DNA of 64,000 nt from Methanobacteriota archaeon (GTDB taxonomy: Archaea; Halobacteriota; Methanosarcinia; Methanosarcinales; Methanogasteraceae), in the NCBI GenBank assembly GCA_048634345.1, contig JAIWAP010000001.1:48-64047 (forward strand), written 5' to 3'. How positions within the stretch are numbered: the stretch's first letter is position 1; every line of letters begins with the position of its first letter. Positions 31,536 through 58,719 of this stretch are shown one piece after another. Position numbers and translations under genes: made by a program. Below the pieces are notes generated by a model. The model was not told where the DNA came from, did not search any database, and saw nothing but the letters and a program-made list of their open reading frames with translations.

Positions 31536-31713
31536 ATTGCCCTATATGTTGGAACGAACTGATTTAAGTGTTTCCTAAACCGGAGTTCCGGGACAATATC
31601 ATTCGACCGACGACAAATATCTGGCAGGACATGTATGTGCCGTCACAATGGCACGGCTGCCCGGGACCCGGGATAGTTCTGATGCAAGCGGCGGTGGGGG
31701 TATACCATAAAAA

Positions 31714-31749
31714 ACGATTTTTTCACAACGATTTTTTCACAAAAAATCG
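31714..31749. repeat. 14-bp direct duplication (ACGATTTTTTCACA x2) overlapping a perfect 9-bp-stem hairpin
   Basis: Direct copies at 31714-31727 and 31728-31741. Hairpin CGATTTTTT-CAC-AAAAAATCG at 31729-31749. Confidence 0.8.
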
Positions 31750-31917
31750 AGTAAAAACTGCCCTCCGGGTCGGAAGCCAGTTTTTGATCAAACTTTTGTG
31801 AAAAGTTTGGTGAAAAGTTTGCGAGTAAGAAATGCCCTCCCAGGTCGGAGACCAGTTTTTGATCAAACTTTTGTGAAAAGTTTGGTGAAAAGTTTGCGAG
31901 TAAGAAATGCCCTTCAG
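31749..31917. repeat. Tandem repeat, 75-bp period, ~2.2 units
   Basis: Unit CCAGTTTTTGATCAAACTTTTGTGAAAAGTTTGGTGAAAAGTTTGCGAGTAAGAAATGCCCTCC.AGGTCGGAGA starts at 31777 and again at 31852, with a partial unit before. Each unit holds the palindrome AAACTTTT-GTG-AAAAGTTT and a 12-bp direct doublet GTGAAAAGTTTG x2. Confidence 0.85.
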
Positions 31918-31920
31918 TGG

Positions 31921-31976
31921 TGTATGGGCATCAGTCGCTCTTGCGTTCACGGTCAGATTAACCACCACAAAAAATG
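31921..31976 (+). repeat. Dispersed intergenic repeat family 'C', copy C1
   Basis: TGTATGGGCATCAGTCGCTCTTGCGTTCACGGTCAGATTAACCACCACAAAAAATG is highly similar, judged by eye, to 45956-46012. Confidence 0.75.
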
Positions 31977-32083
31977 TATGTGTTTAGCTGAGGCGAAAAA
32001 CCACGAGATTGACACAAGAAGATGGTAGTACGTACAAGATATTGGTGATATGTTTGCATTTTACTGATTCCGATGGATTCTGT

Positions 32084-32230: not shown

Positions 32231-32674
32231 CTAAAGCGCTTCAGCAACTCCTGATCCCCATGCTTCGGCATCTCCGAATGCAGGTTCGACGTCTCCATCG
32301 ACCTTGAAACTCTCAGCAACAATCTCGGCGCCGCATTTCTTGAGCGCATCCTCGAGAATATCCACTGCATTGCAGAACGTGTCCGGATAATCCTCGCTAT
32401 CACCCGGACCAAAGACCGCTGCCTTCTTGCCATCCAGGGATACGCCGTCCATCTCATCGTGGAAATCGATGAAATCGTCCTGCAACTCACCATTGCCCCA
32501 TGTGGAGCAGCCGAATATGACCGCGTCGTAATCGGCGAGTTCACCGGCGCTCGCATCTAATACATTCTTCACCGTGACATCCGCGCCCGCCTGTTTGAGA
32601 CCGGCTGCCACATGCTCGGAGAGCGCTTCTGTGTTTCCTGTGGTCGAACCATATACCAGAACTACCTTTGCCAT
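32231..32674 (-). CDS. Flavodoxin (short-chain)
   Basis: MAKVVLVYGSTTGNTE FMN-phosphate loop. 147 aa, acidic. Confidence 0.9.
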   Translation of the reverse strand: MAKVVLVYGSTTGNTEALSEHVAAGLKQAGADVTVKNVLDASAGELADYDAVIFGCSTWGNGELQDDFIDFHDEMDGVSLDGKKAAVFGPGDSEDYPDTFCNAVDILEDALKKCGAEIVAESFKVDGDVEPAFGDAEAWGSGVAEAL

Positions 32675-32775
32675 TGTTATTCCTTCCTGTGTTTCGGACG
32701 TTTTGACTGGAACTTCGAGATACGTATGCTAATTAGGTAAATAAATAACAAACCCTAACAAAAGTAGGGAAAATG

Positions 32776-32926
32776 CAAAATCCTAACTTTATTCGGTTTT
32801 TTAACCAAAACCGAACTTTGATAGGGCAAGGTTATTGATTACCTAATACGTCATGTCTCGGTAGAGGTTTCACCGTCGATAAACATCCTGACGCGGTGTA
32901 CCGGGACATAACAGAGGAGGAATCAA
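32776..32926 (+). promoter_or_regulatory. Conserved ~150-nt leader/promoter module, copy 1 (upstream of CobN-like gene 1)
   Basis: Aligns along its whole length with 37617-37768. Contains a 44-nt imperfect palindrome (32782-32825) whose centre is TTTTTTAACC (TATA-like). GGAGG lies 8 nt before the ATG. Confidence 0.55.
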
Positions 32927-35900
32927 ATGACAAGAAACTATATGCAAGACGTGCGTTCATTCGCACCGATACCGCTGCTGGTTGCAGTCCTGTTCATGGC
33001 GCTCTTAATCGTGCCGCTATCAGCAACCGCACAACCGGAAGAGAACAGGATAATATTCGTTCTCGGAACAGACGAGAACAAGGACTCGCTCTATAATGCG
33101 TCAGCAAGTACCACGCTCGAAGTTGAGATATACAATGCGTCAGTCGCCATGTCAAAGGACTTTAGCAATGAGAGCGTTGTATTCCTGGCTTCCCTTGATA
33201 ACGAGACCGTTTCGAGCATAAATCAGACGATGAACAGAAGCGCTCACGTCTTTGCGTACAATTTAAGCTCGGAGATCGACATCGGAAACGTTGTGGATGT
33301 AAACATCACCAATTACTGGGAGGCTGGCGGCGATGTGAGGATGTTGCATCTGATAACATACCTTGGCGCGAAGTTCTACGACTTGCAGACGGTGGATGTC
33401 CTGTTCATACTTCAGGAGGGTACGATCCACCGTTACTACCTCGAGGAGGTGATGAAGGAGTATACCCTTGCGAACACAACGATAAGCCTCACGATTTACA
33501 ACCGTGATCAGGCAGCAGAGAACAATCTCACATCCTTTGACATAATCGCATTGTACCACGTCACATACCTCCCATCGGTTCAGACAAAGCTTGATGAGGC
33601 GGACAATACGAGCAAGACGATATGGCTTTCCAAATCTACCTCTTTGTGGGATGTGAATGTGCCGCAGAGCACAGGAAAGCACGCGTATGATAAATACTGG
33701 ACACCCAGCGGGATTGAGAACCACCGCCGCATCCTCACCTACCTGGCAGTTACGTTGCTGGACGCTGATGAAGAGATAAAACCCGGAATAAACCTTCCTC
33801 GCAGCGGAATATTCCATCCTGATTATAAATCGGAGTTCCAGCCCTGCAAGGATTGTCTATTCCAGAATCTATCCTCTTACATGGAATGGTACACCGACAC
33901 CGGAAAGTATCACCCGGAGAATCCAACGGTCGGTCTCACGCTATCAGGTTATTACTATGCCAACGGATACTATCTTGATGATTGGATCGCAATTGTAAGG
34001 GAGTTTGAGAATAGAAGCGTAAACGTGATCCCGATCCTCGATGGAACCGATATCAGAGAGTTTTTCTTCGATGAGACCGAGAACGCCACGGTTGATATCG
34101 TCCTCTCATATATGGGGACATTCCATGGCAGCAAGGCATTCAACCTGAGCAGCATCAGCGAGAGAAAAGAGGTGATCGCACGACTTGGCGTGCCATGGCT
34201 AAATTGTATAACAACGGGACAGACACCTGTTGAGTGGGCAAACTCGACGATCGGGATTCCTACCTCGTACATAGGCTGGGCGGTCGCGCTTCAGGAACTC
34301 GAGGGTTTGATTGAGCCAATCGTCATAGGGGGAAGCGTTCTTGACGAGATAACAAACTCAAACATGAAGATTCCAATTCCCGGAAGGGCGAGTTACGTCG
34401 TGAACAGGACGCTGATGTGGACCGATCTCAAGTACATGAACAACAGCGAGAAGAGGATTGCGCTCATCTATTACTCGTATCCGCCAGGAAAGTCCGAGAT
34501 CGGTGCGAGTTACATGGACGTGCCGAGAACACTTGAGGTGCTCTTGAATGAGATGGACGGTGCTGGCTACGATCTTGGGGGGAATTTCACAAGGTACAAC
34601 ATCAGCGACCGGAATGATACGCTGTCGAACAACGGTAGCATCGTTGCCAAACTGATCACACAGGGGCGGAATATCGGCGCATGGGCGCAGGATGATGTGG
34701 ATGAACTTGCCAGATCCGGTGCTATCGTACTGGTTCCGGAAGACGACTATCTCCAATGGTTTAATGAATTTCCTGATGATATGCGAGATGTGGTGATAAA
34801 AGACTGGGGAGAGCCTCCGGGAGATCAGATGGTTTATACCGCACCAAATGGCAGCAGATACATCGTGATTCCATGCATAAAGTACGGAAACGTACTGCTT
34901 GCTCCACAGCCGTATCGGGGCTATCAGAACAGCGAAAAGCTGCTCTACCACAACTCAAGCCTGCCGCCAAACCACCAGTACATCGCCTTTTATCTGTGGT
35001 TGAAGAAGGGTTTTGATGCATCCGCACTGGTCCATATCGGAACGCACGGCACACTGGAATGGCTTCCTGGAAAACAGGTCGGGCTGGACAGCAGATCATG
35101 GTCCGAAGCACTGATACAGGACTTTCCGAATCCGTACATCTACATCGTTGACAATGTCGGTGAGGGAACGCAGGCAAAGAGGAGGAGTTATTCAGTTATC
35201 ATAGACCATGCAACTCCGCCATTCATCCCTTCCGGATTGTACGGCAATTATTCGAACCTTCATCAGGCGATCCATCACTATCTGCTTGCAAAGGAGAATG
35301 GCAACGCGCCTCTCATGAGTGGATACAAGAACACGAGCATCGGGATCATAAAAGATACGCACATCGATGAAGACCTCGGGATAAACATCTCTTATGATGT
35401 GAGTTTTGATGATTTTGAAGCTATGGTCGTCGCGGGACCGGTGCATGACTATCTGCATGAGATGATGTACACGAATATGCCTTATGGTCTCCGGATATTT
35501 GCAAATCCCATACCTGACGAGAGCGCGGTTGCACTGGTGCGTGGGATGCTGGGTGATGAATATATACAGGACATACATGCGGTGAATGCCTCCTGCGATT
35601 CTCATGATGTCGAGGAGTTCAACAAGACCGAGTCATACCGACTTCTTTATCGCGTGCTGGTCGATGGTGTGAATATTACAGATGCCCAGAACGAGATTCT
35701 TGGGAATTCATCCGCAGACGTCTCCGCGGATCTGGCGATTGCAAGGGAATATTACCAGAACATCCTCGCATCCTCTCCAAACGAGATCAAAAGTCTCCTG
35801 GACGCGCTGGACGCGAAATACATCATGCCAGCGGTCGGCGGGGATGTCTTAAGGACGCCTGATGTTCTGCCGACAGGGAGAAATTTCTATTCGTTCGATC

Positions 35901-37594
35901 CAAGAACAATTCCAACAGAGGAGGCTTATGCGATCGGGAGAGAGACGATGGACGCGCTTCTTGTGGATTACTATGAGAGAAACGGCGAATTCCCTGAAAA
36001 GGTCGCATTCGTCCTCTGGGGAATAGAGACGATGCGCAATCACGGTATTCCTCACGCCCAGATGCTCTATCTCATGGGCGTTGAACCAATATGGAAGGCT
36101 GATGGCAAGATCCTCTATTACAGCAAGCCAAAAGTAGAGAATCTGAAAATAATCGACACATCCAATCTGACGATACAGTTGACCGATGGAACAGTGATCA
36201 CGCGTCCGAGAATTGATGTTATAGGTCACAGCTCTGGCTTGCACCGGGATCAGTTCCCATGGCAGATGAAGCTTCTTGACGATGCGGTCAGGATCGTTTC
36301 GCAGTTGAACGAGTCCGAGGATATGAACTATGTGCGGAAGCACTCCCTTGCGCTGAAGGCGTACTACATGGAACTTATGGAGTCCATGAATGTAACCGTG
36401 GACGAGGAAGAAGCCGAGAAGTTATCGATGTCACGACTATTCGGACCGCCTGAGGGCGATTACGGCGTAAGAATTGCAGATGCAACATGGGCAAGCGATA
36501 CATGGGAGAATACGGACCGGATTGCGGATCAATTCATCGAACGCTCAGGAAATGTGTATATTGATGGAGAAATGTATACAAGCCCCCTTATTTCAGGCGT
36601 AGAGGTCTTCAAAGCAGCCATAAAGGATACTGATATCTCAGTATTCATAAGAAGCAGCAATCTCTACGGCGTTCTGGACGGTGATGATCCGTTCCAGTAC
36701 TTCGGAGGATTGAGTCTGGCGATTGCCCGGGTAAGTGATGGTGAACGTCCTGAGATGTGGATAACGAATGCAAGGAATATCGGCAATCCACGGATGCAAA
36801 CGCTGAGCGAATTTATGAATATGGAGATGCGGACACGCATGTTAAATCCAAATTACATAAAGGGCATGATGGAGCACGGTTATGCCGGAGCCGGGAAGCT
36901 TTCAGACCATCTGGCGAACCTCTTTGGCTGGGATGTTGTGGATACGAGATTCGTTGATGCTGCCGACTGGAACGAGGTGTACGAGGTGTATATCCTGGAT
37001 AAATACGATCTCGGAACCAAAGACTGGTTTGATGAGAACAGTCCATGGGCACGTCAGGAGATGATGGCAAGAATGCTCGAAGCTGCACGGAAGGATTTCT
37101 GGGAGCCATCGGATGAACTGAAAGCAGCACTTGCCGAAGAATACCAGCAATCGGTCGAGAAATATGGGCCCTGCTGCTGTATGGTCTGCTGCGGAAATCC
37201 GCTGCTTGATACGTACATGAAGGATATAACAAAGGCATATTCAGAGTCTCCTCAGAGCAGCGGGACCTATTCGGAGCATCAGAGCAGCAGTAGCGGTAAC
37301 AGAGACAGCACATACCCGCCCGAGCCTTCCGAAGACGGGGCAACGAATCAGACGACAACGTCATCTTCGCGAGCAGGTGTCGGGATAACCGGAGATGTGG
37401 TGCCGGAGCCACCCGCGGAAACCAGCAAACCCAGCGATACCAGTGACGCCCCAGATACGGTTGAAGGACAGGTGATGACCGAGATGAAGACCTCTTCATC
37501 GCTGCCGATATCCGGTGCGCCGCTGATGGCAATCGTTGCGGTGGTTGCAATCCTCGGACTGATCGGTACAGGGCTATGGCTTAAACGCAAATAG
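32927..37594 (+). CDS. CobN/Mg-chelatase-H-family protein, predicted exported and C-terminally anchored (CobN-like 1)
   Basis: 1555 aa. CobN signature block ALDAKYIMPAVGGDVLRTPDVLPTGRNFYSFDPRTIPTEEAY. Signal-peptide-like N-terminus (PLLVAVLFMALLIVPLSATAQP) and many N-x-S/T sequons. C-terminal Cys cluster GPCCCMVCCGNP, then an S/T/P-rich linker, a hydrophobic helix and KRK. Confidence 0.85.
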   Translation: MTRNYMQDVRSFAPIPLLVAVLFMALLIVPLSATAQPEENRIIFVLGTDENKDSLYNASASTTLEVEIYNASVAMSKDFSNESVVFLASLDNETVSSINQTMNRSAHVFAYNLSSEIDIGNVVDVNITNYWEAGGDVRMLHLITYLGAKFYDLQTVDVLFILQEGTIHRYYLEEVMKEYTLANTTISLTIYNRDQAAENNLTSFDIIALYHVTYLPSVQTKLDEADNTSKTIWLSKSTSLWDVNVPQSTGKHAYDKYWTPSGIENHRRILTYLAVTLLDADEEIKPGINLPRSGIFHPDYKSEFQPCKDCLFQNLSSYMEWYTDTGKYHPENPTVGLTLSGYYYANGYYLDDWIAIVREFENRSVNVIPILDGTDIREFFFDETENATVDIVLSYMGTFHGSKAFNLSSISERKEVIARLGVPWLNCITTGQTPVEWANSTIGIPTSYIGWAVALQELEGLIEPIVIGGSVLDEITNSNMKIPIPGRASYVVNRTLMWTDLKYMNNSEKRIALIYYSYPPGKSEIGASYMDVPRTLEVLLNEMDGAGYDLGGNFTRYNISDRNDTLSNNGSIVAKLITQGRNIGAWAQDDVDELARSGAIVLVPEDDYLQWFNEFPDDMRDVVIKDWGEPPGDQMVYTAPNGSRYIVIPCIKYGNVLLAPQPYRGYQNSEKLLYHNSSLPPNHQYIAFYLWLKKGFDASALVHIGTHGTLEWLPGKQVGLDSRSWSEALIQDFPNPYIYIVDNVGEGTQAKRRSYSVIIDHATPPFIPSGLYGNYSNLHQAIHHYLLAKENGNAPLMSGYKNTSIGIIKDTHIDEDLGINISYDVSFDDFEAMVVAGPVHDYLHEMMYTNMPYGLRIFANPIPDESAVALVRGMLGDEYIQDIHAVNASCDSHDVEEFNKTESYRLLYRVLVDGVNITDAQNEILGNSSADVSADLAIAREYYQNILASSPNEIKSLLDALDAKYIMPAVGGDVLRTPDVLPTGRNFYSFDPRTIPTEEAYAIGRETMDALLVDYYERNGEFPEKVAFVLWGIETMRNHGIPHAQMLYLMGVEPIWKADGKILYYSKPKVENLKIIDTSNLTIQLTDGTVITRPRIDVIGHSSGLHRDQFPWQMKLLDDAVRIVSQLNESEDMNYVRKHSLALKAYYMELMESMNVTVDEEEAEKLSMSRLFGPPEGDYGVRIADATWASDTWENTDRIADQFIERSGNVYIDGEMYTSPLISGVEVFKAAIKDTDISVFIRSSNLYGVLDGDDPFQYFGGLSLAIARVSDGERPEMWITNARNIGNPRMQTLSEFMNMEMRTRMLNPNYIKGMMEHGYAGAGKLSDHLANLFGWDVVDTRFVDAADWNEVYEVYILDKYDLGTKDWFDENSPWARQEMMARMLEAARKDFWEPSDELKAALAEEYQQSVEKYGPCCCMVCCGNPLLDTYMKDITKAYSESPQSSGTYSEHQSSSSGNRDSTYPPEPSEDGATNQTTTSSSRAGVGITGDVVPEPPAETSKPSDTSDAPDTVEGQVMTEMKTSSSLPISGAPLMAIVAVVAILGLIGTGLWLKRK

Positions 37595-37616
37595 CCCCCG
37601 GTTTTAGGTTTTTAGC

Positions 37617-37768
37617 CAAAATCCTAACAAAATTCGGTTTTTAAGTCAGAACCGAATTTTGTTAGGGCAATGTTCTTATTCACCTAACAGGCTATGACCT
37701 GAAAGATGTTTCATCGCCGACGAACACGCGTTCTGACGCGGTGCACCTGAAAACATAGGAGAAATCAA
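37617..37768 (+). promoter_or_regulatory. Conserved ~150-nt leader/promoter module, copy 2 (upstream of dockerin gene / CobN-like gene 2)
   Basis: Perfect 17-bp-arm palindrome CCTAACAAAATTCGGTT-TTTAAGTCAG-AACCGAATTTTGTTAGG at 37623-37666. A TATA-like TTTTTAAG spans the end of the 5' arm and the loop. AGGAG precedes the ATG. Confidence 0.55.
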
Positions 37769-38368
37769 ATGGAAAGAAATAATACGGTAAATCTGCTGAT
37801 TGCAGCACTGGTAATGGCGCTCTTGATCGTGCCGCTGTCAGTGGCTGCAGAATCGGGAAACATTACCGCACTTGCGAATACGACCTCTGATGAGAACGGG
37901 AACTACACATTCACAAACCTCCCCGCAGGGGATTACGTCATAAACGTGGCATACTACACGCCCGCGATGGGTGGCAAATGGTTCACAGGGCGTACGTATA
38001 CCAGTGTCGGCGATGGAGAAGATCGAAGCGATGTTGAGGTATGTCTGACCTTCGGAAGCGAGGCGGATGCAAACAATATACGGAACGCAAGCATTGATTC
38101 GAGCAGCCCCTCTGGCACCTCAACGATCTCGGGGCAGACACTTGCACACAAGATGGGGGGCGAGGTTGTGGCGATGACGAACGCAACAGTTATCATAAGC
38201 AGCTACCTCAAGGGCGACCTCGATTGTGACGGTCGTCTCACGTCGATAGATGCGCTCATAGCCCTTCAGATGAGTGTTGGGTCTCGCGAATCTAACCATG
38301 TGGGCGACATGAATTTCGATGGGGCGGTCACATCGCTGGATGCGCTCATGATCTTACAGGCGGTGTAG
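37769..38368 (+). CDS. Secreted protein: CarboxypepD_reg-like module + type-I dockerin
   Basis: Signal-like N-terminus (LLIAALVMALLIVPLSVAAES). Module TSDENGNYTFTNLPAGDYVINVAY... Two dockerin EF-hand-like repeats, GDLDCDGRLTSIDALIALQ and GDMNFDGAVTSLDALMILQ (nt 38213-38365). Confidence 0.75.
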   Translation: MERNNTVNLLIAALVMALLIVPLSVAAESGNITALANTTSDENGNYTFTNLPAGDYVINVAYYTPAMGGKWFTGRTYTSVGDGEDRSDVEVCLTFGSEADANNIRNASIDSSSPSGTSTISGQTLAHKMGGEVVAMTNATVIISSYLKGDLDCDGRLTSIDALIALQMSVGSRESNHVGDMNFDGAVTSLDALMILQAV

Positions 38369-38373
38369 CCACG

Positions 38374-41300
38374 ATGAAAAAAAACACGCTAAACCGCGGC
38401 ATAACACCCATACTACTGATCGCAGCACTGATCGTGGCGTTTTCGGTTGTGCCGCTGCCCGCAACCGCACAACCCGGGAACATGACCGTGCTTGCGAAAA
38501 CGACCTCTGATGAGAACGGAAACTACACATTCTCCAATCTCACCACCGGAAATTACACGATCGACGTGGCATACTACACACCCGCGATGGGCGGCACATG
38601 GTTCACAGGAAGCACGAACGCCAGTTTGGGTGATTGCGAGGATCTCACAGGAACAGATGTGTGGCTCTCCTTCGGAAGTGAGGAAGATGCGATCGAGATC
38701 GTGAATGCGACAGTAAATTCGAGTGGCATGGCTGGCACTTCAACGATCTCAGGGCAGACACTTGCACACGGCATGGGCGGTGCGACGACTGTTATGACCA
38801 ATGCAACTGTCGTCCTGATAAAGGTGGACGAGTCAGGAGATGACGGCTCCGCCGATGATGATGACAGTGATCTGCCATTGGCAGATGGACTTGTTCTGCC
38901 AGCACCAAACATGGCAACCGGTGCGGACGGAGCGTTCGCGTTCACCAATCTGCCTGCAGGCAACTACACGATAACTGCGCTGTCCGGAGATGCGATCGGA
39001 AATATCAGCGTGGAAATGGGCGCAGGAGCGCACATAAGCGATCTTGAGATCTGGCTGAACGATACCGCTGACGGTGCGACTGCAGACGCCACCAGAAACG
39101 CGACATACAACAATTCGGGAGGCTCGTATGGCACCGGCTCAATCTCTGGCAGGGTGTGCAACATCACCACTGGAGACTCTGCTCTTGTCACAATCACGAG
39201 CTACACCGGAGATGGGAATCTCGGAAGCGTGAATATAGAGCCAAAGATGGTGTTCATCCTCTCATCACCTGGCGACGTCTTCTTAGCCAGAAAATCGGCG
39301 GCGAGCATCGGTCTGAATATAAGCGTGTACGATAGTCACGGAGTCCCTCCGGATCTCAATCTGACGACGTATGACGTGATCTTTGCAGTGCACCTGACAA
39401 CAAAATCGATCCAGGACGTGCTCGTGCCGCTGATTGAGGCTGCAAATGAGAGCGGCGTTACAGTGATCTGCACGGATCCTGACCACCTGACAAACGTCAA
39501 TCTCACCGAGCACCCATACATCATGGAGTACTGGGAGAGCCGCAACGATAGGAACATGGAACGACTTTTAGTCTATCTCGGTTGCAAGTTCTGCGGTCTT
39601 TCCGGTCTTATCGAAGAGCCGATAATCACTCCCGGCGACGGAATATACCATCCCGATGCTGATCCTGATACTGGCAGAGTCTTTGAGAACTTAACCGAGT
39701 ATCTCCAGTGGTACAACGAGGATGCCGGGGATCATCACGTCTACAATCCGGATAACCTGACAATAGGAATCGTATTCTGGAAGTCACGGTCCGGGACCGG
39801 TGAGATTGGTGTTGTGGACGCGCTCATCAGGGATGCAGAGGCGCGAGGAGCAAACGTAATCCCGGCATTCCAGCCATTCCTGCTCTTTGAAGAGAACCTG
39901 ACCATGATGTTTATGGATGGCAACGAGTCCGCTGTCGATGTCATGATCGATCTCGGGCTCGGGATGGGTCCGCTCACTGTGATGGTTAAGAAGCGGGAGT
40001 ATCTCGAACTGATGAACGTTCCTGTCATGAAATGCATCGAACTCTACACGACAATCGAGGAATGGGAGAACGAGACAACCGGAAAAGACGGTTACTTCAA
40101 TATGCAGATCCCGGTGATGGAGATTGCAGGCGAGATCGAGTTCATCGTTGTCGGCGGGAGGGTGTACAATGCGACATACAACGTCGAGATCATTGAGCCA
40201 ATCGACTATCAGATAGAGTGGGCTGTCGATCGTGCACTCTCGTGGGGCAGTCTGCGTCACACAGAGAACAGCGAGAAGAGGGTTGCGATCCTCTACTATC
40301 ACCACTCCGTTGGAAACGGAAGCGCTCTTGCCGCAGCAAATCTCGATGTTGCGCCAAGCATCGTTAACATCCTTCATGCGATGAATGATTCGGAACAGGG
40401 CTACACACTCGGCGATGAGATACCGACTGATAAGGAACTCCTGGATATGGTGCTCTCGCAAGGCAGGAATATCGGGGTATGGGTTCCTGACCAGATCAAG
40501 AATGTCGCTGAGAACTATGATGTTGCGCTCGTTTCAGAGGAGGAGTACCTGACATGGTTCGAGAAACTTCCGGAAAAGAAGAGAAACGAGGTTACGGCGC
40601 GGTGGGGCGAGCCTCCTGGCAGGATCATGGTCTATGAGAACGAATCCGGCAAATACCTCGTGATTCCGAAGATAACGCTTGGAAACATCTTGATTGCGCC
40701 GCAGCCATCACGCGGGGCAGAGCAGAATATGACCGCTCTTTACCATGATCAGTCAGTTCCGCCGACGCATCAGTACATCGCATTCTACTACTGGCTGAAC
40801 CACGTCTATGAGGCTGATGCTATCGTTTCGATGGGCAGGCACGGAACACAGGAATGGTTGCCCGGAAAAGGCGTTGGCTTGTCAGTGAGGGACTGCTGGC
40901 CCGCAATCTTGATTCAGGATATGCCTGTTGTGTACCCCTACGAGGTGGAGGGCGTCGGAGAAGGTATCGTTGCGAAGAGGCGGGGCAGTGCAGTCATGAT
41001 CGACCATCTGACACCCGTTATCGTCGCAGCAGGGCTCTACGGGAATCTATCGAATCTTGAACAGACGATACCGCTCTACGAGCAGGAAGAGAACGGCACG
41101 CTCAAGGAGAAGTACAGAGAGCAGATTATGGATATGTGCCGCGACCTGAATCTCGGCTGGGATCTGGGCGTTGATCTGGATGAGATCGCTGCATCGAACG
41201 ACACCGTCTTTGAGGAGTTTCTCGAGGAGGTGCACGACTATCTCCTTGAGATTAAGAGGGAGTACATGCCTTACGGCTTACATATCATGGGCAAGCAGCT

Positions 41301-43680
41301 CTCCAACGATAGTCTCGTGGATATGACCAAATCGATTCTTGGTTATGATTTCAGAGAGTACATCGAGAAGACAAACATTACCGAGAACCAGACGAGAATG
41401 CTCCTCTGGGAAGTTATTGTCAACGAAACAACTCCTGATGATGCGCAGAAGAGTGTGCTTGGGTGGTCAGAGAACGCAACCGATCCTGAATCAGGAAAAA
41501 GGGTAGTTGCGAAGACAATCTCCGATGAGAACGGAAACTACACGTTCTCCAATCTCACCGCCGGAAATTACACGATCGATGCGGCGTACTACACCCCAGC
41601 GATGGGCGGCACATGGTTCATTGGAAGCAACGACACGAACCTGAACGATGGAGAGCATCCGGACGGGCTCGACGTGTGGCTAACATTCGGAAGCGAGGAG
41701 GATGCGCTTGAGATTGTGAATGCAACCGTTGATTCAGGCGGCGTCTCTGGTACTTCGACGATCTCGGGGCGGACGCTTGCTGAGGGCATGGACGGAGTGA
41801 TGACGATGGATAACTCAACAGTCGTCCTGCGCAGAACGGATTCAGACGAGGAGCCGGCAGAGACGCCACTCACAGACTTCCTGAACCTCGCAATCGAGTA
41901 TGCAGATAACCTCCGGGACTGCGAAATCGAGATACCAAAGACGCTTGATGCACTCGAAGGAAAATACATCATGCCGGGACCGAGTAACGATCCGATCAGA
42001 AACCCGGATGTGCTGCCGACCGGCAGGAACTTCTATGGCTTCGATCCGAATATCGTGCCGACCGAGGCTGCGTGGGAGGTTGGGTGCGAACTGATCGACC
42101 AGTTGCTCTCGTTGTATTCGAACGGAACCGACGAGAGCTACCCAAAGAAGGTCGGATTTGTCCTGTTTTCAGCCAATACGATGAAGGACCTGGGCGTGCT
42201 CGAGTCAGAGATATTTTACCTCCTTGGTGTGGAGCCGGTCTGGGACAACAGCAACAACATCCACGATGTCAAGCTCATACCAACAGAGAAGCTTGGGAGA
42301 CCGAGAATCGATGCCGTTGTCACGATGAGCGGCATATACCGGGAGAATTGGCCCCGCCAGATCGAACTGATCAACAAGGCGGTTCGCTTAGCCTCTGAAG
42401 CGGATGATTTCCCGCATCACCGGAACTTTGTCAATGAGAGCACCCAGCGGACATACGACTGGTTAATCGAGCACAATTACACCGAAGAACAGGCGCGGGA
42501 TCTCTCGTTGATCCGGATCTTCGGACCTCCAGAGGGCGTCTGGGGTGTCGGCGGACTCACATCAGCGATCGCCGGAACCGGCACGTGGGACAGCGAAGAA
42601 ACGATAGCAGACCTCTACATCAGGAATATGGCTAATGTGTACGGCGACACGATCTGGGGCGAGCAGTACGTCGATCTCTTCAAGCAGAATCTCGCTGGGA
42701 TCGAGGTTGCGGTCTTTAGCTGGACATCGCATTCCCACAGCGTGCTTGGAATCGATCACACCTTCGAGTTCTTCGGGGGCTTAAGCATGGCGATCCGAAG
42801 CGTATCAGGTGAGTCGCCTGATATGTATATTAACAACCTCAAGAACCCTGGCGGCGCAAAACTGGAGACGCTGCAGCACGTCTTGATGAGGGATCTGCGT
42901 TCGATGTACTACAACGAACTCTGGATCAAGGGTATGATGGAGCATGGCTACGCAGGTGCAGGATCGATGTCTACGATCATGTCAAACCTCTGGGGCTGGC
43001 AGGTCACAAACCCGGACATCATAACCGACGAGATGTGGAATACGATGTACTCGATCTATATGCAGGACGAGTACGATCTTGGGCTTACGGATTGGCTCAA
43101 TGAGAACAATGCGTGGGCACGCCAGGAGATGATGGCACGGATGATTGAGTCGACACGGATGCTTGATTCCGAAGGAAACCCGTACTGGAATCCATCCGAT
43201 GAGATAAAAGCGGCTCTTGCACAGGAGTACCAGCAATCGGTCGAGAAATACGGACCCTGCTGCTGCATTGTCTGCTGCGGAAATCCGATGATTGATACGT
43301 ACGTGAAGGGGCTGCTTCAGCCGGGCGCAGAACCCGGGCATCAGAGCAGTAGCAGTAGCAGTAGCAGCGGAAGCGGCACATATCCTGCAGACTGGAGTAA
43401 AGCGGATGCGGGCGCAACGAATCAGACAGAAACATCGTCGCAATCGTCGTCTTCGCCAACAGGTGTCGGGATAACCGGGGATGCGGTTCCGGAACCACCA
43501 TCGGAAACCAGTAAGCCCAGTGACGCAAGCGACGCTCCGGATAAGGTCGAAGGAAAAGTGATGACCGAGATGCAGACATCATCCTCGCTGCCGATATCGG
43601 GTGCACCGCTGATGGCGATCGTTGCGGTGATCGTGATCCTCGGACTGATCGGCTCAGGGTTGTGGCTTAAACGGAGATAG
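38374..43680 (+). CDS. CobN/Mg-chelatase-H-family protein, predicted exported and C-terminally anchored, with three CarboxypepD_reg-like modules (CobN-like 2)
   Basis: 1768 aa. CobN block ALEGKYIMPGPSNDPIRNPDVLPTGRNFYGFDPNIVPTEAAW. Signal-like N-terminus (ILLIAALIVAFSVVPLPATAQP). Two N-terminal modules and one mid-protein module, GPCCCIVCCGNP, a poly-Ser/S-T-P linker, a hydrophobic helix and KRR. Starts 5 nt after the dockerin gene stop. Confidence 0.85.
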   Translation: MKKNTLNRGITPILLIAALIVAFSVVPLPATAQPGNMTVLAKTTSDENGNYTFSNLTTGNYTIDVAYYTPAMGGTWFTGSTNASLGDCEDLTGTDVWLSFGSEEDAIEIVNATVNSSGMAGTSTISGQTLAHGMGGATTVMTNATVVLIKVDESGDDGSADDDDSDLPLADGLVLPAPNMATGADGAFAFTNLPAGNYTITALSGDAIGNISVEMGAGAHISDLEIWLNDTADGATADATRNATYNNSGGSYGTGSISGRVCNITTGDSALVTITSYTGDGNLGSVNIEPKMVFILSSPGDVFLARKSAASIGLNISVYDSHGVPPDLNLTTYDVIFAVHLTTKSIQDVLVPLIEAANESGVTVICTDPDHLTNVNLTEHPYIMEYWESRNDRNMERLLVYLGCKFCGLSGLIEEPIITPGDGIYHPDADPDTGRVFENLTEYLQWYNEDAGDHHVYNPDNLTIGIVFWKSRSGTGEIGVVDALIRDAEARGANVIPAFQPFLLFEENLTMMFMDGNESAVDVMIDLGLGMGPLTVMVKKREYLELMNVPVMKCIELYTTIEEWENETTGKDGYFNMQIPVMEIAGEIEFIVVGGRVYNATYNVEIIEPIDYQIEWAVDRALSWGSLRHTENSEKRVAILYYHHSVGNGSALAAANLDVAPSIVNILHAMNDSEQGYTLGDEIPTDKELLDMVLSQGRNIGVWVPDQIKNVAENYDVALVSEEEYLTWFEKLPEKKRNEVTARWGEPPGRIMVYENESGKYLVIPKITLGNILIAPQPSRGAEQNMTALYHDQSVPPTHQYIAFYYWLNHVYEADAIVSMGRHGTQEWLPGKGVGLSVRDCWPAILIQDMPVVYPYEVEGVGEGIVAKRRGSAVMIDHLTPVIVAAGLYGNLSNLEQTIPLYEQEENGTLKEKYREQIMDMCRDLNLGWDLGVDLDEIAASNDTVFEEFLEEVHDYLLEIKREYMPYGLHIMGKQLSNDSLVDMTKSILGYDFREYIEKTNITENQTRMLLWEVIVNETTPDDAQKSVLGWSENATDPESGKRVVAKTISDENGNYTFSNLTAGNYTIDAAYYTPAMGGTWFIGSNDTNLNDGEHPDGLDVWLTFGSEEDALEIVNATVDSGGVSGTSTISGRTLAEGMDGVMTMDNSTVVLRRTDSDEEPAETPLTDFLNLAIEYADNLRDCEIEIPKTLDALEGKYIMPGPSNDPIRNPDVLPTGRNFYGFDPNIVPTEAAWEVGCELIDQLLSLYSNGTDESYPKKVGFVLFSANTMKDLGVLESEIFYLLGVEPVWDNSNNIHDVKLIPTEKLGRPRIDAVVTMSGIYRENWPRQIELINKAVRLASEADDFPHHRNFVNESTQRTYDWLIEHNYTEEQARDLSLIRIFGPPEGVWGVGGLTSAIAGTGTWDSEETIADLYIRNMANVYGDTIWGEQYVDLFKQNLAGIEVAVFSWTSHSHSVLGIDHTFEFFGGLSMAIRSVSGESPDMYINNLKNPGGAKLETLQHVLMRDLRSMYYNELWIKGMMEHGYAGAGSMSTIMSNLWGWQVTNPDIITDEMWNTMYSIYMQDEYDLGLTDWLNENNAWARQEMMARMIESTRMLDSEGNPYWNPSDEIKAALAQEYQQSVEKYGPCCCIVCCGNPMIDTYVKGLLQPGAEPGHQSSSSSSSSGSGTYPADWSKADAGATNQTETSSQSSSSPTGVGITGDAVPEPPSETSKPSDASDAPDKVEGKVMTEMQTSSSLPISGAPLMAIVAVIVILGLIGSGLWLKRR

Positions 43681-43690
43681 CCGGAGGATT

Positions 43691-44395
43691 ATGCCAGACA
43701 CAACCAACTTAATCGCATTCGGCGTTCTGATCGGAGTCGCAGTCCTTGCCCTGAAGACGGGGCTTGGCTGCGGTTTCGCCAGCCTGAAATGGAAAGAGGT
43801 CGTCTATCTTGCGACCGTCTATCTCGTGATGTCGATCGTTATGGGCTACCTTGTCGGGGTTATTCCGCTCGATCTGACGCAGAACATCCTTGCTGCAGGC
43901 GTTACGATGCATCTCATCATCGCAACCGGGCTGCTTTACTTCGGAGTCCACACAAAGAGGAAGTGGATATCCGGCGGGTGCGACATCTCGAGAAAGACGT
44001 TTCTCTGGCTCTCCCTCCCCTGCCCGGTCTGCATGGTCGCGCTCTTTCTTGCGTGTACTGTTCTTGCAGGTGCGATTGACAAAAGCAATATCGTGATCGG
44101 CGCAATGGTGGGCGTGGTCTTCTTTGCAGGCATCTGTTTATCCGCACTCTCGATTGCGTTTCTTGCAGGGAGATTCGGATGCAGGGACCCGTCAGCACTT
44201 GGAACAGCGATGATACTCTTCGGGCTTTTCTACCTGCTATCACCGCTCATAATCCCTGCGTACATGCAGGCTCAGACGGTTCCAATGCCTGGCATCCCGA
44301 TTGATATGGGCGAGACGCTTCTCTCGTCTGCGCTGATGGCTACACTTGGCATAATCGGCTTCGCGGGGTACAGATACAGACGGTCGAATGATTGA
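43691..44395 (+). CDS. Polytopic membrane protein (DUF2162-like 'predicted transporter') with intramembrane CPVC motif
   Basis: 234 aa, ~6-7 hydrophobic helices. SLPCPVCM (CPVC at nt 44021-44032) lies inside a helix. Starts 10 nt after CobN-like 2, with GGAGG. The DUF2162 assignment rests on size and topology from memory and needs an HMM check. Confidence 0.6.
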   Translation: MPDTTNLIAFGVLIGVAVLALKTGLGCGFASLKWKEVVYLATVYLVMSIVMGYLVGVIPLDLTQNILAAGVTMHLIIATGLLYFGVHTKRKWISGGCDISRKTFLWLSLPCPVCMVALFLACTVLAGAIDKSNIVIGAMVGVVFFAGICLSALSIAFLAGRFGCRDPSALGTAMILFGLFYLLSPLIIPAYMQAQTVPMPGIPIDMGETLLSSALMATLGIIGFAGYRYRRSND

Positions 44396-44441
44396 GTGAT
44401 TAAGTGATTCTAATGAATTAAAAGACTTAAAGGAGAATAAA

Positions 44442-45059
44442 ATGGACATATCTTCAGGAATATTTGGAACGATGTTTATGATCTCGAATACGCTGCTTTA
44501 TCCGGTGGTCCTCATCCTGCTCGGACTGATCGCATGGTCGTTTGTCTCGACAGGGCAGTTCATATCCGAGTACACATCGAGAAACAGGGACGCGAAAAGG
44601 CTCAAGGCGGGTTGCAGGGATACGAGGGCGAAGATTGAGAATGGTGATCCAAACGGGGCGGCAGCAGTGCTCACGGCTAGTGGATCGAACAATCTCTTAA
44701 AGAAGTTCATAAAAGAGATCTCAGAGATTCTCGGTGCAGGAAATTTTCCGGTTGAGGCAGAGAAGCTGCTTCAGGACTACGAACTGAAAATTGCCGATGA
44801 ACTGATGCATGTGAGACTGGTGGCACGAATTGGTCCGATGCTTGGGCTTATGGGGACGCTGATCCCAATGGGTCCTGCGCTGATGGGCTTATCATCAGGG
44901 AACATCCAGCAGCTTGCAGCAAATCTGGTGATCGCATTCTCAACAACGGTTCTCGGTCTTCTGGCTGGCGGGGTGGCTTACAGCATCCTCTTAATCAAGA
45001 AGAAGTGGTATACGCAGGACTTAAGCGACATGGAGTATGTTGTGGAGGTCTTGAAGTGA
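44442..45059 (+). CDS. MotA/TolQ/ExbB-family proton-channel protein
   Basis: 205 aa. C-terminal block IGPMLGLMGTLIPMGPALMGL....LAANLVIAFSTTVLGLLAGGVAY matches the MotA_ExbB signature. Confidence 0.8.
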   Translation: MDISSGIFGTMFMISNTLLYPVVLILLGLIAWSFVSTGQFISEYTSRNRDAKRLKAGCRDTRAKIENGDPNGAAAVLTASGSNNLLKKFIKEISEILGAGNFPVEAEKLLQDYELKIADELMHVRLVARIGPMLGLMGTLIPMGPALMGLSSGNIQQLAANLVIAFSTTVLGLLAGGVAYSILLIKKKWYTQDLSDMEYVVEVLK

Positions 45060-45394
45060 GATCAACCCGGAAGCGGATCGTTCTGGACGACGAGGAGGAT
45101 CCGCTGGGTGGCGTTGCAAACCTCTTTGATGCCGCGATGGTCTTTGCTGTCGCGCTCCTTGTTGCGCTTGTTGTCTCCTACAACGTGCCGGAACTGCTTG
45201 ACGCTGATGCGAGCGTAACAATCGTCAAGAACCCGGGAGACCCGAATATGCAGGTGATAATCAAGGATAAGGAGACGATAAAGGTTATGAATATGACCGA
45301 GCAGCTCATGGGTGGTCAGGGGTCAAAGATCGGGACTGCGTACCGGCTGGAGACCGGAGAGGTGATATATATGCCCGAGAATGAGACCGGATGA
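45056..45394 (+). CDS. Small single-TM protein, ExbD/TolR-analogous position (DUF2149-like)
   Basis: A GTG start at 45056 overlaps the MotA-like stop (GTGA). Layout: basic N-terminus, one TM helix (LFDAAMVFAVALLVALVV), then a ~70-aa extracytoplasmic tail. The family name is from memory. Confidence 0.55.
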   Translation: MRSTRKRIVLDDEEDPLGGVANLFDAAMVFAVALLVALVVSYNVPELLDADASVTIVKNPGDPNMQVIIKDKETIKVMNMTEQLMGGQGSKIGTAYRLETGEVIYMPENETG

Positions 45395-46038: not shown

Positions 46039-47001
46039 TTATCTCATTCGCCTTGCCATGTATGCTGCTATACCTGCAACGGTCAGCAACATCGCCCCAA
46101 ATCCGGGTGTGGCATCTTCTCCAGTTGCCGCGCCTTCCTCTGGCGCTGCCGCCGTCTCTGTTGTCTCTGCCGTCCCGGTTGGTTCGGTTGTTGCAGCCGG
46201 TGTGGCAGTCATATCCGGAGCCACTGTGGCACTGCTTGAAGGGTGGCAGACCGAACAGTCCAGTCCGCGCTGCGTCGGCGGTACCACCGTGATCAGGTGC
46301 AGCCCTGTCAGGTTATGGCAGTTGCTGCACGGGGGCAGGATTACCTTGCCCTCTGGCATGTGGCAGCCATCACAGGTTGCCAGATCCGGCAGATGAATCA
46401 GGTGCGGAATCACGTCCGGTTTCAGCTCCCGTTCTTCAGTGTTGCCTTCAGGTCTGTGGCACATGTAACAGATCGATGAATCGGTCTCTTCACCGTGAAG
46501 ATGCACCAGATCGTCATACGCGTGGCAATCCTGACACAGGATGGTCACTCCGGCGTGCTGGACCGGCTTCACGATGTTTGGCGCGGTCTTGTGGCAGGCT
46601 TCGCATCCGTTATGCACATCCACGAGATCACGGTGGCAGTGTGCGCACACTGTAGTGTCAAGGATCTCGCTGTTGTGGTGTGTGTTGATATCACCATGGC
46701 AGTACGAACAATCCTCGGTCTTCACCTTTGCGATGTGTGCATCATGAATCGTGCCGCCGTGGCAGTTTTCACACTGCGGGATCGCAATCTCCAGTGCCTC
46801 TCCGTGACAGGCTTCACAGGTCACCCGGTTCTGATTCATCACCTCTTCATGGAGGGTGTGTGGTGACCCGGGGTGACACTTTGTACAGTCAACATCCTGG
46901 GTCTTCAGTGCGAGCGTATCAAACTGCACCTCAGAAAAAACCATCGGGATGCTTGAAATCAGCAGAATAAGCGTTGAGAGCAATATCAGTGTTTTTCTCA
47001 T
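46039..47001 (-). CDS. Multihaem c-type cytochrome (11 CxxCH) with PGF-CTERM archaeal sorting signal
   Basis: Signal peptide MRKTLILLSTLILLISSIPMVFS. 11 CxxCH motifs counted. A T/P/A/E-rich linker is followed by ATPGFGAMLLTVAGIAAYMARRMR at the C-terminus. Confidence 0.85.
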   Translation of the reverse strand: MRKTLILLSTLILLISSIPMVFSEVQFDTLALKTQDVDCTKCHPGSPHTLHEEVMNQNRVTCEACHGEALEIAIPQCENCHGGTIHDAHIAKVKTEDCSYCHGDINTHHNSEILDTTVCAHCHRDLVDVHNGCEACHKTAPNIVKPVQHAGVTILCQDCHAYDDLVHLHGEETDSSICYMCHRPEGNTEERELKPDVIPHLIHLPDLATCDGCHMPEGKVILPPCSNCHNLTGLHLITVVPPTQRGLDCSVCHPSSSATVAPDMTATPAATTEPTGTAETTETAAAPEEGAATGEDATPGFGAMLLTVAGIAAYMARRMR

Positions 47002-51932: not shown

Positions 51933-52050
51933 TTCTTATCTCGCACCCAGAAAGATGAAGACGTCCACAAAGAGCACCGCAAAGCTGACCATGAGGATGC
52001 GCAAGCCCCACGTGAGCCAGCGCTGCTTTGTATCCGCTATTTTCTCGAAA
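51933..52050. repeat. ~118-bp direct repeat, copy A (3' end of the membrane-protein gene)
   Basis: Aligns with 55842-55960 at roughly 80% identity by eye (…CATCTCGCACCC.AGAA.GATGAA…AAAGAGCACCGCAAAGC…GCGCAAGCCC..CGTGAGCCA.CGCTGCTTT…). Confidence 0.8.
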
Positions 52051-55841: not shown

Positions 55842-55960
55842 TTCTCATCTCGCACCCGAGAACGATGAATATGTCCGGAAAGAGCACCGCAAAGCGGATC
55901 ATGGGGGTGCGCAAGCCCTGCGTGAGCCACCGCTGCTTTTATAGGATTTTCGTAATCGAG
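55842..55960. repeat. ~118-bp direct repeat, copy B (orphan copy of the membrane-gene 3' end, upstream of the ATPase gene)
   Basis: On the minus strand it translates to KQRWLTQGLRTPMIRFAVLFPDIFIVLGCE, compared with KQRWLTWGLRILMVSFAVLFVDVFIFLGAR at copy A. No gene body is attached. Confidence 0.8.
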
Positions 55961-57692: not shown

Positions 57693-58631
57693 TCAGATCG
57701 GTGCATGCCCGTTCGTGTGACAGGTCATACAGTCAACGTCCACGACGATGTCCTTGTGCGCATCAGCATGGCAGTCGACACATTCCTTTGCTCCGGTGTG
57801 CTCGATGTGACAGTCGGTGCAGTTCAACTTCGCATGTTCGGTCGGATATGCGATGAACTCATCCTTAGTGTCTTCGTGGCACAACATGCACTTCTCGCTG
57901 GTCACGATCGCACCGAACTTGATCACGGTCGGAGCATGTGGGTTATGACAGACCTGACAGTCCGCCAGTCCTGATCCGTGTTCAATCCCATGACAGTCCA
58001 GACATGTCATGGATTCGGCATGATCCTTGTGACAGGAGTAGCATCCGTCTCCGATCAATGGCGCATCATAACTGTATGTCGTCGGACTCAGCGTGTATCG
58101 TCGAGCCTCATAGCTGGTGTCCTTCGTCGCATGTCCGCCACCGGATGTGATGAACTCGGTATACTGGGTCTCATGGCAGTCAGCACAGCCATAGCTGGTG
58201 TCTGCGGCGTGGGCAGGATGACAATCCCTGCAGTCGCCTTCTGCCAGTTCGGTGGCATGGTGGTAATCGCCATGGCATATCCTGCACTCTGTATACATCG
58301 GCGCAACAGGTGTGTTATGGCAGCGTATGCATTCGGTGGGTATCATTCCCTCGTGTAACTGCACGCTCTCCGGTGCCTGGGATTTCGCAAGGTCCCTGAG
58401 GCACTTCCCGGAATACGGCTCAGCACGTTCTCCTCTCTGGTCAGGAACGATCGCATTGAATACAGCGGGCCATATACCAGTCCCTGCCATCTCCTGAGTA
58501 TACTCAGGATTATGACAGCCACCACACTGCTGCATCTCGATCGATGCGTCTGAGTCATAGACGATAATCGAGATAATGACCAACCCAAGAACCATCAGCA
58601 TCAGCACGGCAAATAATTGAGTTTTGTTCAT
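57693..58631 (-). CDS. Multihaem c-type cytochrome (12 CxxCH), N-terminally membrane-anchored
   Basis: Start set at MNKTQLFAVLMLMVLGLVIISIIVY (ATG at 58631, with GAGGAA upstream). 12 CxxCH motifs counted. Confidence 0.85.
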   Translation of the reverse strand: MNKTQLFAVLMLMVLGLVIISIIVYDSDASIEMQQCGGCHNPEYTQEMAGTGIWPAVFNAIVPDQRGERAEPYSGKCLRDLAKSQAPESVQLHEGMIPTECIRCHNTPVAPMYTECRICHGDYHHATELAEGDCRDCHPAHAADTSYGCADCHETQYTEFITSGGGHATKDTSYEARRYTLSPTTYSYDAPLIGDGCYSCHKDHAESMTCLDCHGIEHGSGLADCQVCHNPHAPTVIKFGAIVTSEKCMLCHEDTKDEFIAYPTEHAKLNCTDCHIEHTGAKECVDCHADAHKDIVVDVDCMTCHTNGHAPI

Positions 58632-58719
58632 GGTAGGTTCCTCAACATTATCATAAGATGATAGTAAACACACCAAATTCCTATAAATATGTTTCGGCAT
58701 TTGCCACCAGATTGAAGTA

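Follow-up and report, generated by a model that had tools for sequence, protein, structure and literature searches.

A conserved array of TTAGG/CCTAA half-sites at CobN/HmuS-like chelatase promoters of uncultured archaea, a candidate DtxR-type operator

The chelatase locus and its promoter arrays

The window, a 64-kb stretch of archaeal contig DNA, carries two genes encoding CobN/HmuS-like chelatases (here denoted CobN-like 1 and CobN-like 2). Two related leaders precede their transcription units, copy 1 (32776-32926) upstream of CobN-like 1 and copy 2 (37617-37768) upstream of a dockerin gene that opens the CobN-like 2 operon. The subject of this analysis is the promoter element within these leaders, an array of TTAGG/CCTAA pentamers of alternating orientation that we regard as a candidate operator. 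Among solved structures, CobN-like 1 best matched the HmuS heme dechelatase (9d26_A, 458 bits), followed by CobN (388) and ChlH (382), and the window holds the combination expected of an hmuSTUV-like system, a CobN-like HmuS with MotA/ExbB and DUF2149 partners (Table 1). The closest CobN-like proteins are labelled as belonging to metagenome-assembled genomes (MAGs) of Syntropharchaeales, Methanosarcinales or Methanobacteriota. NikR (15526-15948) is the only obvious metal regulator and the sole transcription factor found in the window.

A sequence-only reading of this DNA had reported that the two leaders align over their full length up to the ATG, and this was confirmed at ~75% identity (repeat family D9). 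The conserved core of the element is free of indels and reads CCNAA-N5-TTAGGG-N15(TATA-like)-CCTAACA. Its best-conserved half-sites, TTAGGG and CCTAAC(A), lie 21 bp apart and bracket a T/A-rich interior of 15 nt, which is probably the region of the B recognition element (BRE) and the TATA box. In many promoters the core is preceded by one to three TTAGG-N14-CCTAA units that repeat every ~29 bp. Exact TTAGG-N13..17-CCTAA occurs three times in the window, against 0.09 expected.

We found a third copy of the core, unreported in the earlier reading, on the minus strand in front of the divergent flavodoxin gene (32732-32768). The region between the flavodoxin and CobN-like 1 genes forms a continuous four-unit array (32733-32846, with units starting at 32733, 32764, 32792 and 32821), in which the unit TTCGG-N14-CCGAA encloses the T-run of copy 1, TTTTTTAACC. 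A three-unit array (37604-37687, units at 37604, 37633 and 37662) lies between the CobN-like 1 stop codon (37592-37594) and the dockerin-CobN-like 2-DUF2162-ExbB-DUF2149 operon; the T-runs that directly follow this stop codon could also terminate CobN-like 1 transcription. The earlier proposal that both halves of the cluster are under one signal is supported by the arrangement, and the third core copy brings in the flavodoxin gene as well.

Table 1. Genes and promoter features of the chelatase locus (window positions)
Feature	Position	Strand	Description
Flavodoxin gene	32231..32674	-	Pfam Flavodoxin_1, E 7e-31; divergent from CobN-like 1; predicted regulon member
Flavodoxin core cassette	32732..32768	-	CCTAC-TTTTG-TTAGGG-TTTGTTATTTATTTA-CCTAAT; interior TTATTTAT TATA-like; ATG 84 nt downstream of TTAGGG
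Two middle operator units common to the divergent promoters	32764..32815	.	GTAGG-N13-CCTAA 32764-32786; TTCGG-N14-CCGAA 32792-32815
CobN-like 1 core cassette	32811..32848	+	CCGAA-CTTTG-ATAGGG-CAAGGTTATTGATTA-CCTAATA; TATA-like interior ~32831-32841
Presumed 5' untranslated region of CobN-like 1	32849..32926	+	CACCGTC...GACGCGGTG; Shine-Dalgarno GAGGAGG
CobN/HmuS-like chelatase 1	32927..37594	+	1555 aa; Pfam CobN-Mg_chel; N-terminal signal/anchor, C-terminal transmembrane anchor
Two upstream operator units of copy 2	37604..37656	.	TTAGG-N14-CCTAA 37604-37627; TTCGG-N14-CCGAA 37633-37656
44-nt perfect palindrome	37623..37666	.	Half-sites 2+3 mirrored by half-sites 4+5; perfect in copy 2 alone
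Dockerin/CobN-like 2 operon core cassette	37652..37689	+	CCGAA-TTTTG-TTAGGG-CAATGTTCTTATTCA-CCTAACA, 0 mismatches; TATA-like interior ~37671-37682
Presumed 5' untranslated region of dockerin gene	37690..37768	+	Dockerin-type leader
Operon behind copy 2	37769..45394	+	Five genes; same gene set as hmuS-T-U-V (hmu composition: PMC11681262)
Dockerin/CarboxypepD_reg protein	37769..38368	+	First gene behind copy 2
CobN-like 2	38374..43680	+	1768 aa
DUF2162	43691..44395	+	End of copy 2 operon
MotA/ExbB	44442..45059	+	End of copy 2 operon
DUF2149	45005..45394	+	End of copy 2 operon

Conservation in orthologous loci and spread of the cassette

A contig scan with CobN-like 1 gave two loci only (L001 and L002, on MAG contigs), in which CobN-like 1 is 88-89% identical and which supplied four further leaders; other orthologues were reached through a protein database and contig look-ups. 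A hidden Markov model built from the six leaders was searched against the contigs of CobN orthologues of 59-81% identity (L003-L007). It matched the first ~90 nt only, leaving the 5' untranslated region (UTR) unmatched, and the matches lay upstream of genes for CobN, a small CobN-like protein, DUF2162-ExbB-DUF2149, an MFS transporter and a beta-helix protein. Seventeen promoters of CobN, small CobN-like, DUF2162, MFS and beta-helix genes, retrieved from seven contigs by protein homology alone, were aligned on the proximal TTAGG. The alignment showed no indel across ~75 nt, the TAG of TTAGGG and the CCTAA were invariant, and the consensus read aaa.CC.AAC.tT.TT.GGtTTTT.Atc.aAAACC.AAc.TT.TTAGGG.A...T..TTat..aCCTAACA. 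The motif is thus conserved upstream of orthologous clusters, where its absence would have counted against the sequence-only reading. In another lineage (L009-L012) a 70% orthologue keeps CCTAA-N5-TTAGC-N16-CCTAAC. A CobN orthologue of 47% identity (L008) is without the motif and adjoins a NikR_C gene.

Two observations concern the surroundings of these orthologues. In L008 (4848-5800) the CobN-like gene is immediately preceded by the NikR_C-domain gene, and the promoter there has ATTACC-N6-GGTAAT palindromes and no TTAGG/CCTAA cassette; in that lineage CobN-like genes may be under nickel-linked control. In L003 (7040-7140) and L004 (9545-9660) the space from the DUF2149 gene to the CobN promoter holds an inverted repeat with arms of ~45 nt (…cacaacactttctttc…gtgctaa… / …ttagcac…gaaaaagtgttgtg…), followed by repeated aatctcgtgg-like motifs that are present also in L001 (6500-6580) and L007.

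The resemblance of the two leaders could in principle be the functionless, neutral leftover of a recent segmental duplication, as the sequence-only reading had allowed. The copies also share the signal-peptide coding region (repeat D7), and synonymous-site identity between CobN-like 1 and 2 is raised at the ends of the genes, reaching 50% N-terminally and 63% C-terminally. Further DNA repeats between the two genes (D3/D6/D8) are 71-84% identical, a pattern suggesting that the ends of the paralogues, which encode signal peptide and membrane anchor, have undergone gene conversion. However, both leader types are found in three genomes and cluster by type, the two CobN-like proteins are just 43% identical with a four-fold-site identity of 19-42% in the gene body, and the cassette stands before unrelated genes in more than 100 contigs. 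Recent duplication alone is thereby refuted, and we give it practically no credence.

A single scan of metagenome contigs with the core pattern CCNANNNNNNTTAGGGNANNNNNNTTNNNNNCCTAACA (19 specified bases) gave matches in at least 120 contigs; the counts that follow refer to the 113 dereplicated promoters obtained from them. The promoters were oriented before a consensus was taken, TTAGG-N16-CCTAA being its own reverse complement. The unconstrained flanks again read TTAGGtTTTTtATC..AAAACC, with the same upstream T-run and pentamers. Upstream TTAGG-N14-CCTAA units were present at -29 in 40/113 promoters, at -58 in 10/113 and at -88 in 7/113. Among the matches listed, the family most frequently found behind the cassette was FeoA (15 distinct promoters), followed by secreted CbiX-like (+FmdE) chelatases (8), CobN-like proteins (6), O-methyltransferase and DUF2325 proteins (5 each), MFS and DUF2249-like proteins (4 each), dockerin, DUF454 and flavodoxin proteins (3 each) and DUF2162 (2), with single cases that include a cohesin protein, DUF2149 and a DtxR-family repressor. 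Flavodoxin homologues adjoin motif sites in L050, L063, L067 and L098.

Several of the downstream genes have features of their own. The CbiX-like secreted chelatases (L043, L026, L071, L062, L077 and others), the second commonest family, include FmdE fusions and reach 1586 aa. Secreted cohesin (L017) and dockerin proteins (L031/L125 and that of the window, 37769-38368) both follow the cassette, which hints at a cohesin-dockerin surface assembly co-regulated with the chelatases. A tiny cysteine-rich open reading frame (ORF) of 28 aa, MGCECDGNCAHCRCKKAKAVSEEVEDEE, lies ~65 nt past the motif, after the cassette and a strong ribosome-binding site AAAGGAGGT. It belongs to a family seen in at least ten contigs (L023, L088, L022, L028, L038, L070, L105, L108, L117 and L127), and the peptide looks like a metal-binding one. 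At the corresponding place L096 has a histidine-rich ORF of 58 aa.

Elsewhere in the window, short dispersed repeats occupy the intergenic DNA around 31700-32070. A 75-nt unit is repeated there in tandem (31765-31838 and 31840-31913, 96% identity, repeat family D11), the 29-mer TTTTCACAAAAAATCGAGTAAAAACTGCC (31734-31762) recurs exactly in L002, L019 and L051, and L090 (two inverted copies), L085 and L001 (6554-6597) have sequences matching 31976-32063. The region 31700-32070 had no Rfam match, and its repeats could be elements resembling miniature inverted-repeat transposable elements or small-RNA genes. An 84-nt direct repeat of 85% identity (repeat family D10; 51946-52029 and 55856-55939, 3.9 kb apart) flanks a region encoding a TPR protein and an AAA/NACHT-like ATPase.

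Promoter position, palindrome and leader

The sequence-only reading took the T-run in the palindrome loop for the TATA box and placed the transcription start ~100 nt before the ATG. Promoters without the upstream T-run (such as L104, L115 and L087) retain a good TATA-like sequence in the interval from TTAGGG to CCTAAC, as in CTTTTATAT. The distance from TTAGGG to the start codon showed a sharp lower bound of 38-43 nt with a spike at 43, and several genes with a short distance have no Shine-Dalgarno sequence. Such a bound is expected if transcription starts near +40, ~26 nt past a TATA box centred near +14. On these two grounds the T-run is probably not the TATA box, and it appears somewhat more probable that the box lies inside the core. 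We infer transcription starts near 32861 (CobN-like 1) and 37702 (dockerin operon), with 5'UTRs of ~65 nt instead of ~100.

The same geometry could mark a specialised class of basal promoter, in which a particular TFB/TBP paralogue, in place of a repressor, would read TTAGGG and CCTAAC as extended BRE and downstream promoter elements. The spacing is rigid, and the two best-conserved elements flank the TATA-like box at a fixed distance in every promoter. Yet the upstream units repeat the same pentamers every 29 bp, and canonical DtxR boxes contain them near +40, a position not used by basal factors; the gene set is coherent for metal acquisition, and dtxR genes are linked to the sites. We therefore consider a basal-promoter class very improbable.

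A protein operator straddling the promoter had also been proposed, with a 44-nt palindrome as its unit. The perfect 17-bp arms in copy 2 were confirmed (CCTAACAAAATTCGGTT at 37623-37639, matched on the opposite strand at 37650-37666 across a 10-nt loop), and copy 1 keeps the inner 9 and outer ~5 pairs. The suggested search half-site, CCTAAC-N5-TTCGGTT, missed both copies, and N4 found both, showing that the true spacing is N4. A bacterial promoter and terminator scan, a method inapplicable to an archaeon, merely flagged the palindrome as a terminator-like hairpin.

Arm pairing over the 113 promoters averaged 8.3 of 17 positions against ~4.5 in shifted controls. Arms complementary across homologous copies, expected of a hairpin or cruciform, were not found, 17/17 being reached by copy 2 only. 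The four middle arm positions paired at chance (1.0/4), which indicates protein sites rather than a hairpin. Because leaders L002b and L001a lack the left arm altogether, the 44-nt palindrome is not a conserved object; its symmetry derives from the protein half-sites, and its perfection in copy 2 is a local peculiarity. The proposal of a protein operator overlapping an archaeal promoter is supported; that of the palindrome as its functional unit is not.

The long 5'UTR was found in close relatives only (W1, W2, L001a/b, L002a/b, L014/L126 and L030), being replaced by short unrelated leaders in orthologues of 59-81% identity. CobN1-type leaders are about as conserved as four-fold synonymous sites (0.57-0.82 vs 0.57-0.79); the window's own CobN-like 1 leader is 0.62-0.69 identical to its orthologues, with 0.64-0.79 at the four-fold sites. 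Dockerin-type leaders (W2, L002b, L001a) exceed the four-fold synonymous sites of the following gene (0.84-0.94 vs 0.68-0.84; Fisher p = 0.0007-0.03). For eight leaders RNAalifold predicted a single 8-bp stem (CACCGC/GCGGTG) in which one change is compensatory, the covariation term being -0.23 kcal/mol. A function of the dockerin-type leader, and a regulatory role of the long 5'UTR, are possible on these sequence comparisons.

An element acting at the RNA level, with the palindrome as a transcribed hairpin or the long 5'UTR as a riboswitch-like leader, would draw on this excess conservation of the dockerin-type UTR, on the compensated stem and on the stability of the copy 2 hairpin: against shuffled sequences, the single-strand RNA fold of the palindrome region has z = -7.45 in copy 2 (z = -3.1 in copy 1). 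Against it, the hairpin is perfect in 1/113 promoters, its middle positions are without covariation, and the left arm is missing in two leaders. The alifold covariation term is only that small value, single-sequence UTR folds are unremarkable (z = -1.8 and -0.08), and the more distant orthologues carry the short unrelated leaders instead. An Rfam search of the whole window at gathering thresholds returned one tRNA only, and relaxing it to E<=10 for 32400-38000 gave only chance-level miRNA/sRNA matches. We rate an RNA-level element as a most unlikely explanation.

The candidate regulator and its regulon

The pentamers TTAGG/CCTAA, invariant or near-invariant in the 17 and the 113 promoters, are the half-sites of the IdeR/DtxR box (TTAGGTTAGSCTAACCTAA, minimal form TTAGGNNNNCCTAA; PMC8464063). 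The 113 promoter regions contain 25 canonical TTAGG-N4-CCTAA boxes, 10 of them exact, where shuffled sequences gave 0.8, an enrichment of ~30-fold. Fourteen of the 25 lie at +37..+50, among them GTTAGGGCAACCTAAAA, which closely resembles the Haloferax TroR motif TTTAGGC-NNN-CCTAAAA (PMC10783522). DtxR-family genes (Pfam Fe_dep_repress + Fe_dep_repr_C) are present in 8 of the 120 contigs listed, in 6/8 within about 3 kb of a site, adjacent or in the same operon. The order is motif-dtxR in L060, dtxR-motif-gene in L059, L100 and L107, and motif-feoA-feoB-dtxR in L020 and L080. The genes behind the listed sites are those of iron-uptake promoters, FeoA being joined by flavodoxin, MFS and chelatase genes.

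The sequences show the architecture and its conservation, what the regulon contains and the dtxR linkage; the identity of the binding protein, repression and the metal signal are inferred. In our judgement the likely explanation is an array of operators that brackets the TATA box and is bound by a DtxR-type repressor dependent on Fe(II), and the chelatase genes are probably part of an iron-starvation regulon. With Fe(II) replete, a DtxR-family repressor would occupy the TTAGG/CCTAA half-sites, probably cooperatively along the array, and would deny TBP/TFB or RNA polymerase access to the promoter. When iron is limiting it would leave, and the regulon would be transcribed. Its members would be the feoAB genes for ferrous-iron uptake, flavodoxin, and an HmuS-like (de)chelatase system that is secreted, anchored at the surface and partnered by ExbB/ExbD-like proteins.

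Several points weigh against the DtxR-type repressor. The core is without canonical DtxR geometry (TTAGG-N4-CCTAA or a 19-bp box), its half-sites being everted at N5 or 21 bp apart, an arrangement that poses a difficulty for reading by a DtxR dimer. Canonical boxes are absent from the window's two leaders and occur clade-wide only as extra sites in about 12% of promoters. The linkage to dtxR is seen in the eight related contigs and not in the window: phmmer found no DtxR-like ORF within the 64 kb. Since dtxR commonly neighbours feoAB in general, the linkage could also be partly a by-product. The retrieval pattern fixes part of the core, so that core conservation in the 120 contigs is partly imposed.

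The geometry also raises the possibility that the same operator logic serves a different binder, a ribbon-helix-helix or Lrp-like factor on CCTAA-N5-TTAGG, or a tetramer spanning TTAGGG-N15-CCTAAC, with DtxR as a mere member or neighbour of the regulon. Palindromes of 15 bp (5-N5-5) every ~29 bp are typical of Lrp-like arrays, and the habitual company of dtxR and feoAB fits this possibility too. The core departs from the DtxR sites described in PMC8464063 and PMC10783522. On the other side, the pentamer sequence is identical to DtxR half-sites, the 30-fold enriched canonical boxes lie in the same promoters, and no other transcription-factor family recurs by the sites, where only small uncharacterised ORFs resembling winged helix-turn-helix proteins were seen. 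A non-DtxR binder is, in our view, unlikely.

Three further points against a DtxR repressor speak for NikR, as a nickel-responsive tetramer that would bind GTTAGG-N16-CCTAAC and repress a nickel-scavenging CobN-like system; this reading was pursued on account of the 6-N16-6 geometry. The core formally has NikR operator geometry, GTTAGG-N16-CCTAAC in all promoters forming a 28-bp inverted repeat with half-sites ~16 bp apart, like the known sites GTATGAT-N13/14-ATCATAC and GTGTTAC-N13/14-GTAACAC (PMC545781). In Methanothermobacter, shortage of nickel induces CobN-like proteins, CobN1 responding together with NikR1 (PMC12350162). The distant CobN orthologue in L008 adjoins a NikR_C gene, and nikR itself is encoded in the window. 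It was rejected on regulon content and linkage. Searches with the window NikR found no nikR-like ORF in the 120 motif contigs listed, eight of which have dtxR, and the downstream families listed are dominated by FeoA, with flavodoxin; genes for nikMNQO, hydrogenase or CODH are not among them. The half-sites differ in sequence from those of known NikR operators, as the sequence-only reading had suspected, and neither the window's own nikR promoter region nor L008 has the motif. The chance that NikR binds the array is, we think, slight.

Compared with Actinobacteria DtxR/IdeR boxes, the archaeal cassette shares the identical pentamers, iron-uptake promoters, a DtxR-family gene linked in eight related contigs and, in a minority of clade promoters, the exact N4 box. 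In place of a 19-bp box it has half-sites everted at N5 and spaced 21 bp round a TATA box, within an archaeal TBP/TFB promoter, and its arrays reach four units at a 29-bp period. An archaeal parallel is the TroR operator of Haloferax volcanii, validated by ChIP-seq and reporters, with tandem sites ~30 bp apart; TroR represses iron uptake under iron sufficiency (PMC10783522). Both are archaeal, have TTAGG/CCTAA pentamers and place repeated sites at intervals of ~30 bp close to the TATA box, the TroR site being that of a DtxR-family iron repressor. The TroR site, by contrast, is N4 and either site alone suffices, whereas here the TATA box sits inside an invariant pair at N16 whose arrangement does not vary by a single base pair; the lineage is another one, and the regulon holds Feo, HmuS-like and flavodoxin genes as opposed to siderophore genes. 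MDR1 of Archaeoglobus fulgidus, a DtxR-family metal-dependent repressor, is likewise reported to block transcription initiation by binding three adjacent operators that overlap the promoter of its own gene; these reportedly lie on the downstream side of the TATA box instead of flanking it. NikR operators (PMC545781) have in common the 27-28-bp inverted repeat with 6-7-nt half-sites two helical turns apart, and differ in half-site sequence, in the iron-related regulon found here and in linkage to nikR, which the cassette lacks.

The gene set behind copy 2 recalls the Bacteroidota hmuYRSTUV system, in which hmuS is CobN-like, hmuU MotA/ExbB and hmuV DUF2149; the hypothetical membrane protein in the hmuT position is DUF2162 in the archaeal operon. 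A functional partnership with FeoAB, and iron or heme limitation as the signal, would also be alike, the latter being a prediction for the archaeal genes. The HmuY hemophore and the TonB-dependent receptor are missing here, archaea being without an outer membrane; CarboxypepD_reg/SdrD-like domains are found in the chelatases, a dockerin protein is added, and the control element is different. In Bacteroides, HmuS/BtuS act with FeoAB in iron acquisition and HmuS removes iron from heme (PMC12583661, PMC6460266). The window also has two multiheme c-type cytochrome genes on the minus strand (46039-47001 and 57693-58766; Cytochrome_C7 / Cytochrom_c3_2), which fit a lineage with high iron and heme demand.

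Put together, the findings may describe a new DtxR operator architecture, in which half-sites 21 bp apart clamp the TATA box within a 29-bp array, and a regulon that would make archaeal CobN/HmuS homologues an iron-starvation-induced surface system, stripping iron from environmental metalloporphyrins with ExbB/ExbD-like, cohesin/dockerin and CbiX-like partners. We advance this joint claim tentatively and as a whole consider it doubtful. In half-site sequence and proposed logic the candidate operator resembles DtxR-family repression of iron uptake (IdeR, TroR, MDR1); judged beside the sites of PMC8464063 and PMC10783522, it is a variant that fails the defining geometry of the family. A similar motif class may already be catalogued among archaeal DtxR regulons. 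For the family the cassette poses a puzzle, since the half-sites are its own and the geometry round the TATA box is non-canonical.

A 2025 study of HmuS found it unclear how Archaea use their many HmuS/CobN/ChlH homologues (PMC12583661). That use is now testable: in the present clade a cassette conserved to the base is common to HmuS/CobN-type genes and to feoA, flavodoxin and dtxR genes, and it gives a scanning handle for rebuilding iron regulons in MAGs. The prediction, read from sequence, concerns uncultured archaea related to Methanosarcinales/Syntropharchaeales with a very high iron demand: their CobN/HmuS-like genes would be iron-limitation genes, perhaps encoding extracellular (de)chelatases that feed Feo.

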